Virus record (IMG/VR): IMGVR_UViG_2526164661_000007
DNA length: 24,976 bases
Strand: one strand, 5' to 3'
From: a virus
Lineage: Duplodnaviria > Heunggongvirae > Uroviricota > Caudoviricetes
Within the stretch, counting starts at the first letter, position 1. Each line of letters starts with the position of its first letter. The notes below the pieces were generated by a model, which saw only the letters and a list, made by a program, of their open reading frames with translations, made no database searches and was not told where the DNA came from. A program made the position numbers and the translations under genes. Shown piece by piece: positions 2,927-18,299 of this stretch.

Positions 2927-4024
2927 TTAGAACTGGTAAACCAGACCTACAGCAACGATGTCATCAGTGCTTACACCGAGTGCTTTAGTGAAGTCATTTT
3001 TGTCAAGCAGGTTGATTTTGTAATCAACGAAAGTAGACATATTTTTGTTGAAGTAATAGGTTGCACCTACATCAACATATTTGACTAAGTCCTGATCGCC
3101 CCATACTCCAAGATCCTTACCTTTAGATTGCAGGTAAGCAACGGACGGACGCAGACCGAAATCGAACTGATATTGTGCAACAGCTTCGAAGTTTTGGGCT
3201 TTATTAGCAACGAAGTGATCAGCAAATACAGTCATATTCTGGGTTTCAGAATAGGTAGTGGCCAGGTAAATGTTGTTAGCGTCATATTTCAGACCTGCGG
3301 CCCAAACTTCTGCATTTTTACCGGAAGCAAATACTTCAGGAAGAACTTTCCCTGCATTAACTTGAGTGTCGGTACGATCAGATTTCGCATAAGTTGCACC
3401 GATACCGAATCCTTCGTATTCATAGGTAGCAGAGAAACCGAAGCCATCACCGTTACCTTCAGTGTAGTTATCGAAATCGCTACGATCGTTTTTGCCTTGG
3501 TACTGAGCAGCAAAGTTTAGACCATCAACCAGACCAAAGAAGTCGTTGTTACGATAGGTTGCAACACCAGTGGTGCGACCAGTCATGAACACATCTGTTT
3601 GGGTCCAGGTATCGCCACCGAATTCTGGCAGAACGTCAGTCCACGCACCGATGTCGTATGCTACACCGTAGTTACGGCCGTAATCGATTGAGCCGTAGTC
3701 ACCGAATTTCAGGCCTGCAAATGCAAGACGGGTTTTGTCTTTGGAGGAACCTTGAGATTCAGCGCGGTTGCCTTTGAATTCATATTCCCACTGACCGAAA
3801 CCAGTCAGTTGATCGTTGATTTGGGTTTCACCTTTGAAGCCAAGACGGGCATAAGTAGTATCACCATCATCTGCATCATTAGAGGAGAAGTAGTGCTTAG
3901 CATTAACTTTCCCGTACAGATCCAGCTTGTTACTGTCTTTATTATAAATTTCAGCTGCCTGAGCAGACATCGCCATCAGTACTGATGCAGCTACAGCAGA
4001 AATTGCCACTGTTAATTTTTTCAT
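2927..4024 (-). CDS. nmpC: Outer-membrane general porin, NmpC/Lc/OmpD family (prophage moron), apparently intact
   Basis: ORF 2927-4084 on the - strand; internal ATG at 4024 gives [23 protein letters not shown] signal peptide followed by [16 protein letters not shown]..., ending ...VGLVYQF (C-terminal Phe typical of beta-barrel porins). 365 aa. Confidence 0.9.
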
Positions 4025-5798: not shown

Positions 5799-6092
5799 TT
5801 ATTGTGAGCAATACACACGCGCTTCCAGCGGAGTATAAATGCCTAAAGTAATAAAACCGAGCAATCCATTTACGAATGTTTGCTGGGTTTCTGTTTTAAC
5901 AACATTTTCTGCGCCGCCACAAATTTTGGCTGCATCAACAGTTTTCTCCTGTCCAATTCCCGAAACGAAGAAGTGATGGGTGATGGTTTCCTTTGGTGTT
6001 ACTGCTGTCGGTTTGTTTCCAACAGTAAACGTCTGTTGAGCACATCCTGTAATAAGCATTGCCAGAGCGGCAGAAAACAACATTTTTTTCAT
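5799..6092 (-). CDS. bor: Bor lipoprotein (serum-resistance moron)
   Basis: Internal ATG at 6092 (AGGA RBS) gives MKKMLFSAALAMLITGCAQQ... (lipobox), 97 aa; matches lambda Bor from memory. Convergent with Rz. Confidence 0.9.
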   Translation of the reverse strand: MKKMLFSAALAMLITGCAQQTFTVGNKPTAVTPKETITHHFFVSGIGQEKTVDAAKICGGAENVVKTETQQTFVNGLLGFITLGIYTPLEARVYCSQ

Positions 6093-6225
6093 CTTATTAT
6101 CCTGCATTGTTAAAAACGGCAGAATCCTATGTGACAACAATTAAACGATAGTTAAATGGATTGATGAAAATTAAAACTATATAGGTGGATGCTCAGCCTA
6201 TTGGAGGAGGGGGGCACTCAGAATC

Positions 6226-6230
6226 CTGTG
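6226..6230. repeat. IS2 target-site duplication, left copy (CTGTG)
   Basis: CTGTG immediately left of the IS2 terminus; identical pentamer at 7561-7565. Confidence 0.8.
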
Positions 6231-6321
6231 TAGACTGGCCCCCTGAATCTCCAGACAACCAATATCACTTAAATAAGTGATAGTCTTAATACTAGTTTTT
6301 AGACTAGTCATTGGAGAGCAG

Positions 6322-6686
6322 ATGATTGATGTCTTAGGACCGGAGAAACGCAGACGGCGTACTACACAGGAAAAGATCGCTATTGTTCAGCAGAGTTTTG
6401 AACCGGGAATGACGGTCTCCCTTGTTGCCCGGCAACACGGTGTGGCAGCCAGCCAGTTATTTCTCTGGCGCAAGCAATACCAGGAGGGAAGTCTTACTGC
6501 TGTGGCCGCAGGAGAGCAGGTCGTTCCTGCCTCTGAACTTGCTGCTGCCATGAAGCAGATTAAAGAACTCCAGCGCCTGCTCGGCAAAAAACGATGGAAA
6601 ATGAACTCCTTAAAGAAGCCGTTGAATACGGGCGTGCAAAAAAGTGGATAGCGCACGCGCCCTTATTGCCCGGGGATGGGGAGTAA
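6322..6686 (+). pseudogene. insC: IS2 insC (OrfA), apparently frameshifted in an A-run (A6 at 6586-6591)
   Basis: ATG 6322 (frame 1) encodes [25 protein letters not shown]...LLGKK; the conserved InsC C-terminal part [31 protein letters not shown] (to TAA 6684-6686) is in frame 3. As sequenced, frame 1 stops at 6649-6651. Confidence 0.6.
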
Positions 6687-7549
6687 GCTTAGTCAGCCGT
6701 TGTCTCCGGGTGTCGCGTGCGCAGTTGCACGTAATTCTCAGACGAACCGATGACTGGAAAGATGGTCGCCGCAGCCGTCACTCAGATGATACGGATGTGC
6801 TTCTCCGTATACACCATGTTATCGGAGAGCTGCCCACGTATGGTTATCGTCGGGTATGGGCGCTGCTTCGCAGACAGGCCGAACTTGATGGTATGCCTGC
6901 GATCAATGCCAAACGTGTTTACCGGATCATGCGCCAGAATGCGCTGTTGCTTGAGCGAAAAACCGCTGTACCGCCATCGAAACGGGCACATACTGGCAAA
7001 GTGGCCGTGAAAGAAAGCAATCAACGATGGTGCTCTGACGGGTTCGAGTTCCGCTGTGATAACGGAGAAAAACTGCGAGTCACGTTCGCGCTGGACTGCT
7101 GTGACCGTGAGGCACTGCACTGGGCAGTCACTACGGGCGGCTTCGACAGTGAAACAGTACAGGACGTAATGCTGGGAGCGGTGGAACGCCGCTTCGGCAA
7201 CGAGCTTCCGGCGTCTCCAGTAGAGTGGCTGACGGATAATGGTTCATGCTACCGGGCTAATGAAACACGGCAGTTTGCCCGGATGTTGGGGCTTGAACCG
7301 AAGAACACGGCGGTGCGGAGTCCGGAGAGTAACGGCATAGCAGAGAGCTTCGTGAAAACGATAAAGCGTGACTACATCAGTATCATGCCTAAACCAGACG
7401 GGTTAACGGCAGCAAAGAACCTTGCAGAGGCGTTCGAGCATTATAACGAATGGCATCCGCATAGTGCACTGGGTTATCGCTCGCCACGGGAATATCTGCG
7501 GCAGCAGGCCAGTAATGGGTTAAGTGATAACAGGTATCTGGAAATATAG
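6644..7549 (+). CDS. insD: IS2 insD (OrfB, DDE transposase catalytic domain)
   Basis: 301 aa from GTG 6644, with DDE/integrase core. Normally made as InsCD fusion by -1 slippage at A6G (6638-6644). Confidence 0.85.
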
Positions 7550-7560
7550 GGGCAAATCCA

Positions 7561-7565
7561 CTGTG
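7561..7565. repeat. IS2 target-site duplication, right copy (CTGTG)
   Basis: Direct repeat of 6226-6230. Confidence 0.8.
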
Positions 7566-7786
7566 GAATGAAATAAACCGCTCTTTCTGTCCATTACCCT
7601 TTTAGCTGCGCTGTATCGTCGCCGTATTCCCGCATTAACCATGACCGTAGCCCGACGGGGAATTCCTTCTGCGTGAGTGTGCGGGAATAATCAAAAACGA
7701 TGCACACCGGGTTTTACTGTGCTGACAGACGCAGGGTTACCCTCATAGTCGCTTTTCCGGTGCGATGGTGGAAGAAACCGGGATGT

Positions 7787-7981: not shown

Positions 7982-8177
7982 GAGGTTGCCCCGTATTCAG
8001 TGTCGCTGATTTGTATTGTCTGAAGTTTTTTTACGTTAAGTTGATGCAGATCAATTAATACGATACCTGCGTCATAATTGATTATTTGACGTGGTTTGAT
8101 GGCGTAGATGCACGTTGTGACATGTAGATGATAATTATTATCATTTTGCGGGTCCTTTCCGGCGATCCGACAGGTTA

Positions 8178-17885: not shown

Positions 17886-18299
17886 ATGTTCCTGAAAACC
17901 GAATCATTTGAACATAACGGTGTGACCGTCACGCTTTCTGAACTGTCAGCCCTGCAGCGCATTGAGCATCTCGCCCTGATGAAACGGCAGGCAGAACAGG
18001 CGGAGTCAGACAGCAACCGGAAGTTTACTGTGGAAGACGCCATCAGAACCGGCGCGTTTCTGGTGGCGATGTCCCTGTGGCATAACCATCCGCAGATGCC
18101 GTCCATGAATGAAGCCGTTAAACAGATTGAGCAGGAAGTGCTTACCACCTGGCCCACGGAGGCAATTTCTCATGCTGAAAACGTGGTGTACCGGCTGTCT
18201 GGTATGTATGAGTTTGTGGTGAATAATGCCCCTGAACAGACAGAGGACGCCGGGCCCGCAGAGCCTGTTTCTGCGGGAAAGTGTTCGACGGTGAGCTGA
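17886..18299 (+). CDS. G: Tail assembly chaperone G
   Basis: 137 aa MFLKTESFEHNGVTVTLSEL...; slippery heptamer GGGAAAG near the 3' end. Confidence 0.9.
   Translation: MFLKTESFEHNGVTVTLSELSALQRIEHLALMKRQAEQAESDSNRKFTVEDAIRTGAFLVAMSLWHNHPQMPSMNEAVKQIEQEVLTTWPTEAISHAENVVYRLSGMYEFVVNNAPEQTEDAGPAEPVSAGKCSTVS
18275..18281 (+). promoter_or_regulatory. Programmed -1 ribosomal frameshift site (G GGA AAG) producing the G-T fusion
   Basis: GGGAAAG lies in the G frame as G|GGA|AAG; the -1 frame is open from here to 18715 (T segment). Confidence 0.85.

Follow-up and report, generated by a model that had tools for sequence, protein, structure and literature searches.

The IS2-type element and its setting in the prophage

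The DNA analysed here (the window, 24,976 bp) is the entire contig AIGT01000007.1 of assembly GCA_000250075.2. One source gives the frameshifted OrfA product of the window as coming from 'Escherichia coli DEC10E', and DEC10E (GCF_000250075) is an O26:H11 stx1 eae STEC isolated from a calf (PMC7693793). On it lies the late part of a lambdoid prophage, in the order Q, porin gene, holin, lysozyme, Rz, bor, insertion sequence (IS), ylcI-like gene, Nu1, A and the head and tail genes up to J. The early region of the prophage is absent from the contig. An IS66-family transposase gene fragment lies at the left contig end (154-513), where the contig probably ends in a repeat. The porin gene (365 aa, Pfam Porin_1, 2927-4024, minus strand) has the Q antiterminator on one side and the lysis cassette on the other, a typical 'moron' position in lambdoid phages. 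In the tail gene region, at about position 18090, there is an in-frame 9-bp length difference relative to strain S10. The features of the bor-proximal interval and of the IS are given in Table 1.

Table 1. Positions of bor, the insertion sequence and its parts in the window
Feature	Position	Strand	Remarks
bor/iss lipoprotein gene	5799..6092	-	97 aa, intact, divergent from orfA; Pfam Lambda_Bor (PF06291)
Putative bor core promoter	6140..6168	-	TTCATC-17 nt-TTTAAT; proposed by likeness to lambda bor, which has TTCAAC-17-TTTAAT
Left target-site duplication	6226..6230	.	CTGTG; single copy in the empty sites of related prophages
IS2-subtype insertion sequence	6231..7560	+	1330 bp (intact copies 1331 bp); begins TAGACTGG, finishes GCAAATCCA
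Left terminal inverted repeat (IRL)	6231..6272	+	42 bp, starts TAGACT
Frameshifted orfA (insC)	6322..6651	+	109 aa; native through residue 90, then 19 out-of-frame residues, TAG at 6649-6651
A6 run, frameshift site	6586..6591	+	A7 in intact subtype copies; AAGAAAA in canonical IS2
Stranded native OrfA C-terminal part	6594..6686	+	residues 92-121, frame 3, stop 6684-6686
Programmed -1 frameshift heptamer (A6G)	6638..6644	+	A AAA AAG, intact
orfB (insD) frame	6644..7549	+	301 codons from GTG, uninterrupted, integrase-type catalytic domain
Right terminal inverted repeat (IRR)	7520..7560	+	41 bp, last bases GCAAATCCA
G>A substitution	7536	+	specific to the window copy; OrfAB C406Y (InsD …NRCLEI to …NRYLEI)
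Right target-site duplication	7561..7565	.	CTGTG

The element has the size and ends by which IS2 is recognized, about 1.33 kb with imperfect terminal inverted repeats, the 42-bp IRL beginning with TA and the 41-bp IRR ending with CA. This agrees with the original prediction, in which a 1330-bp IS2-like element with imperfect inverted repeats began at 6231 and ended at 7560. The arms at 6240-6272 and 7520-7552 are 76% complementary; a bipartite structure has been described for the ends of IS2 (PMC3219604, PMC3299598). The terminal sequences of the window element (TAGACTGGCCCC… and …GGGGCAAATCCA) were the same in every IS2 copy that we compared. A 5-bp target-site duplication is also a property of IS2, and here CTGTG is present on both sides. 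In eight other IS2 copies the duplications were GCCCA, TCCAA, ATTAC, ACCAT, CAGTG, CATTT, ATCTC and CGTTG, all of them perfect, and two further copies coincidentally also have CTGTG.

We compared the locus with the corresponding empty sites of related prophages. After removal of the IS and one CTGTG, the window aligned with APEC E18005 over 8,690 bp across the junction with 6 mismatches, and the sole gap in this alignment was far from the junction. Strain N61 was likewise contiguous over the insertion point. Because the empty sites of these relatives are contiguous and contain a single CTGTG, the repeat in the window is a true target-site duplication, and the earlier claim that the flanking CTGTG marks a simple transposition event is borne out by APEC E18005 and N61. 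A search of the window for further IS2 ends found none. The locus is thus almost certainly a simple IS2-type insertion and not a rearrangement junction. We looked for the same insertion in 5,426 complete E. coli genomes and in 50,697 phage records and found it in none; the matches of fitting length have IS2 elsewhere near bor.

Canonical IS2 (E. coli K-12 InsC/InsD) has the same architecture as the window element, with a length of 1331 bp, an IRL and an IRR, orfA and orfB with an A6G site and a 5-bp duplication. The window element shares 95.3-95.7% identity with two copies listed in RefSeq as 'IS3-like element IS2 family'. The convention of ISfinder for isoforms is roughly 95% nucleotide identity. 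With an intact copy in strain NT1N25 (WP_089541817.1, annotated in RefSeq as 'IS3 family transposase, programmed frameshift') the window element has 1329 of 1330 aligned bases in common (99.85% identity, one mismatch and one gap). The ends, the A6G site, orfB and the 5-bp duplication of the subtype copies in NT1N25 and ETEC1701 are as in the window. Judged from its sequence, the window element appears to be a common sub-type of IS2 (IS3 family).

The window copy differs from the intact subtype in two ways: one A of an A7 tract is missing, and G is replaced by A at 7536. Comparison with reference copies had been proposed as a check on the missing base, and when we carried it out the intact copies of the same subtype proved to be 1331 bp in length with AAAAAAA at the place of 6586-6591. 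The A7 tract in a 1331-bp element, as implied by the original prediction, is therefore correct for this IS2 subtype but not for canonical IS2, which has AAGAAAA at the mutated place, no homopolymer, and hence lacks the slippage-prone tract of the window subtype. The substitution at 7536 occupies position 25 of IRR and falls within CCAGACA, a conserved block of its protein-binding domain. Just two contigs of the entire collection carry the exact InsD of the window. On the second of these it is at a different locus, so the variant with A at 7536 appears to have moved. The metagenome contig L017 combines A at 7536 with A7 and is otherwise identical to the window copy, and all four haplotypes (A7/G, A7/A, A6/G and A6/A) exist.

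The orfA frame and its coding consequences

The ATG at 6322 opens frame 1, the native OrfA C-terminus is in frame 3, and the change of frame occurs at the A6 run, the last native residues before the break being …QRLLGKK. Both the switch of insC from frame 1 to frame 3 at 6586-6591 and the A6G heptamer at 6638-6644 had been predicted, and both were found as described. IS2 has a continuous orfA of 121 codons encoding a helix-turn-helix and a coiled coil (residues 73-100); in the window this frame is broken after codon 90. The frameshifted orfA still matched Pfam HTH_Tnp_1. The other coding properties of IS2 are retained. The orfB frame lies at -1 over A6G (frame 2, relative to frame 3 for native orfA), the A6G motif being one described for IS2 (PMC3219604), and its product has an integrase-type (rve, DDE) domain, with matches to Pfam HTH_21, rve and rve_3.

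The 109-aa OrfA encoded by the window scored 205.7 bits against the NCBIfam model 'IS2 repressor TnpA', under the cut-off of 229 bits. In silico repair by addition of one A gave an OrfA of 121 aa and, with the standard -1 shift at A6G, an OrfAB of 409 aa that is the intact protein save for C406Y. The repaired protein scored 697.9 bits against 'IS2 transposase TnpB' (cut-off 597) and 284.1 bits against 'IS3 family transposase' (cut-off 160), and the repaired fusion scored 238.8 bits against the 'IS2 repressor TnpA' model, above its cut-off of 229.

Ribosomes that start at the ATG at 6322 read the A6G site as CAA AAA AGT, which is +1 relative to native orfA. They reach the site in the wrong frame, and therefore the programmed -1 shift cannot give OrfAB. 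The earlier statement that no InsCD (OrfAB) fusion can be made if the A is truly missing follows from this frame analysis. As written, then, the frames support the conclusion that the copy would be unable to make OrfA or OrfAB by the normal route. In IS2 the coiled coil, a leucine-zipper-like motif at residues 73-100, is required for oligomerization, binding of DNA (ends) and transposition, and the L97H change in OrfA results in loss of function (PMC3219604).

We also considered, by sequence logic, the decoding events that could bypass the break. One +1 shift anywhere from about 6626 to 6649 (including 6640-6643) would enter the orfB frame, giving a fusion from which the final zipper heptad, with the essential L97, is absent. 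If tRNA-Lys slipped by -1 on the second AAA (6589-6591), reading would continue as ACG ATG GAA, the exact native sequence. One A inserted during transcription would also recreate native OrfA, and OrfAB would then need a second rare shift. An Rfam scan of 6100-7700 for a frameshift-stimulating RNA gave just chance-level matches to models of eukaryotic lncRNAs. Mobilization in trans is conceivable because both ends and orfB are intact.

The A6 allele in DEC10E and in other assemblies

DEC10E contains a second IS2 copy, at 5910-7239 of contig AIGT01000037.1, where it interrupts the porin gene bglH and is flanked by the duplication ACCAT. This copy is also 1330 bp with A6, and its sole difference from the window copy is at 7536, where it has G. 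Inspection of another IS2 copy from the same genome had been suggested along with the original prediction, and the bglH copy indeed carries the same A6. The shared A6 fits a collapsed-repeat or systematic consensus problem equally as well as real propagation. No IS2 was present at the bglH position among the 5,426 complete E. coli genomes.

In other assemblies the A6 allele is rare. An 81-bp probe with A6 was matched perfectly in 16 records, compared with about 6,476 complete E. coli records carrying the region. The allele nevertheless recurs on at least four IS2 sequence backgrounds. The 109-aa A6 product was found on 57 contigs, which include 36 collection blocks in which the longest contig with the product is <2 kb. 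IS2 copies in WP2-W18-ESBL-10, VE-T9 and 50EVA show the identical one-base loss in the same tract, but at other loci and on other backgrounds (7-25 substitutions). PGAP labels both of the A6 copies inspected for annotation, those of WP2-W18-ESBL-10 and VE-T9, as pseudogenes ('IS3 family transposase, frameshifted'). Several A6 copies are in assemblies with evident indel noise, in which the IS2 elements have odd lengths (loci L005-L008 and L015). The noisy elements are 1328, 1329 or 1334 bp, and one copy of 1331 bp has five gaps.

All three IS2 copies in VE-T9 carry A6. We considered this strain as proof that an A6 copy can multiply and rejected it. On its plasmid pVE-T9_1 (1-50000), many genes present in several copies (IS26, IS1, aadA1, cmlA, blaOXA and tet) are annotated as 'frameshifted' in a RefSeq genome described as 'complete', despite a clean chromosome region, the sampled chromosomal housekeeping genes being free of such damage. 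The frameshifts in VE-T9 look like unpolished long-read indel errors confined to repeats.

Whether the window copy is truly A6 is, in our judgment, evenly poised. An explanation in which an IS2-type insertion has undergone a biological deletion of one A, with all that follows from it, has as a whole an even chance of being correct. An IS2-subtype element (IS3 family) would have entered the bor-ylcI intergenic region by a copy-out/paste-in route with duplication of CTGTG, and replication slippage would then have deleted one A from the A7 tract of orfA. OrfA would be truncated after residue 90, inside the coiled-coil motif (73-100), the A6G site would be reached in the wrong frame, and neither OrfA nor the OrfAB transposase would be produced. 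Such a copy would be non-autonomous: its movement would require OrfAB provided in trans by a different IS2, or a +1 reversion in the tract. Both the biological origin of the deletion and the immobility of the copy are inferences. The alternative is that the insertion is real and the missing A is false, the bor-proximal copy being an intact 1331-bp IS2 with A7 and the A6 being a homopolymer miscall or a consensus of reads pooled from all IS2 copies that the assembler wrote into each of them; we consider its chance of being right to fall a little below even. Arguing against such an artefact, homopolymers of 7-9 bases within about 35 kb of unique DEC10E sequence match those of close relatives, save for one polymorphic T run, and the flanks of the bglH copy aligned with strain TW10590 over 10,995 bp with no gaps, including A9, A7 and T7 runs. 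Furthermore, many contigs with the A6 product are short, as is typical of short-read assemblies, in which miscalls of A7 are unusual. The 23.6 kb of unique sequence in the window has only one homopolymer difference from relatives, which also fits a real deletion. This difference is a T7 at 8026-8032 that is one base shorter than the T8 of APEC E18005 or the TTGTTTTT of S10, N61 and lambda. This run is intergenic, between the ylcI-like gene and cos, and as a second shortened homopolymer in the window contig it favors an error. The two DEC10E copies themselves point in the same direction, since they are identical internally and differ at a single base 25 nt inside the end of the IS, the pattern expected from an assembler that collapses repeats. 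The four haplotypes require no extra mutation if the A6 is an artefact. If the deletion is real they require two deletions in one genome, gene conversion or reversion, which counts against a real deletion. The existence of the exact A7 twin of the window copy on L017 is also in favor of an artefact. Both DEC10E insertions are strain-specific (absent from the 5,426 complete genomes), which suggests recent movement from an active source and is a further point for an artefact. Finally, residual assembly errors typically occur in places such as an A7 tract within a repeat, as VE-T9 illustrates.

A further possibility is that the A6 is real and the copy is still mobile, the slippage-prone A7 tract serving as an on/off switch, with movement through trans-complementation or through ribosomal or transcriptional slippage that restores OrfA (…GKK-TMENE…). 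We believe this to be extremely unlikely. DEC10E does contain two strain-specific A6 insertions with perfect duplications, A6 is present on several IS2 backgrounds, and by sequence logic the -1 slip on the second AAA would restore native OrfA exactly. For a null IS2 construct, background transposition has been ascribed to the IS2 copies of the chromosome (PMC3219604). However, OrfAB from an A6 copy would require two rare shifts on one message, and one +1 shift at 6640-6643 would yield a fusion without the last zipper heptad and its L97. The clustering of A6 within genomes is explained equally by assembly artefacts, and A6 is rare overall in the records matched with the probe. The more general proposal, that the A7 tract of the subtype is a recurrent slippage hotspot that turns the transposase reversibly off (A6) and on (A7), with off copies multiplying by means of helpers or decoding slippage, is in our view very unlikely, even though it would explain the two strain-specific A6 insertions in one genome.

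The element in the window is of a known kind and in a known state; its site is new but unremarkable, and the finding matters little beyond annotation. If the A6 is an artefact, it calls for caution: homopolymers in multi-copy elements are the commonest places for false frameshifts in draft and hybrid assemblies, and a short-read draft cannot support statements about the interior of individual repeat copies. If the deletion is real, the copy adds to the decayed, non-autonomous IS copies already known and is fixed in the prophage of an O26:H11 STEC, beside an intact bor/iss.

The bor/iss gene and its neighborhood

At 97 aa, the Bor lipoprotein of the window belongs to the Lambda_Bor family and has exactly the sequence of WP_000738423.1, 'increased serum survival lipoprotein Iss'. 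Its alignment with lambda Bor shows 90 matches over 98 positions, with the stop counted. The protein is very common (listed in 35,314 collection blocks), hence uninformative as a look-up. The start codon of bor (ATG, 6092) is separated from the IS by 138 bp, as predicted, and orfA and bor are each transcribed away from the other.

Upstream of bor, homology to lambda extends over only about 55 bp. A TTCAxC-17 nt-TTTAAT arrangement is found within and just past this homologous stretch in both phages. A generic consensus promoter scan did not flag the putative bor promoter. From its position and its likeness to lambda, TTCATC-17-TTTAAT is likely the bor core promoter and would be untouched by the IS: it lies between the IS and bor, with its -35 element 62 bp from the IS end. 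The original prediction had also stated that the insertion separates bor from its upstream region. The position is correct, but its importance was probably overstated, since the putative promoter remains on the bor-proximal side. The insertion is probably neutral for bor expression.

Hybrid promoters at the IS ends were considered as well and rejected, the consensus scan having found nothing above shuffled expectation. Inspection by eye revealed no -35-like hexamer in the flank upstream of TAGACT at IRL and no -10-like hexamer at the right spacing in the sequence that follows IRR.

GPEC206-621, the UTME strains and NT1N25 likewise have IS2 near this bor/iss cassette of lambdoid prophages, at a distance of no more than about 1.5 kb. 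The sites differ from that in the window (the rzpD-iss gap, inside bor and the lysis genes), and the duplications are GCCCA, TCCAA and ATTAC. IS2 or IS3-family elements have hit the bor/iss neighborhood independently in several strains, at positions in the rzpD-iss gap, within bor, among the lysis genes and in the ylcI-bor interval. The elements of this neighborhood are located at L001:1578-2908, L002:1824-3154, L003:1501-2831 and L023:1447-2660.
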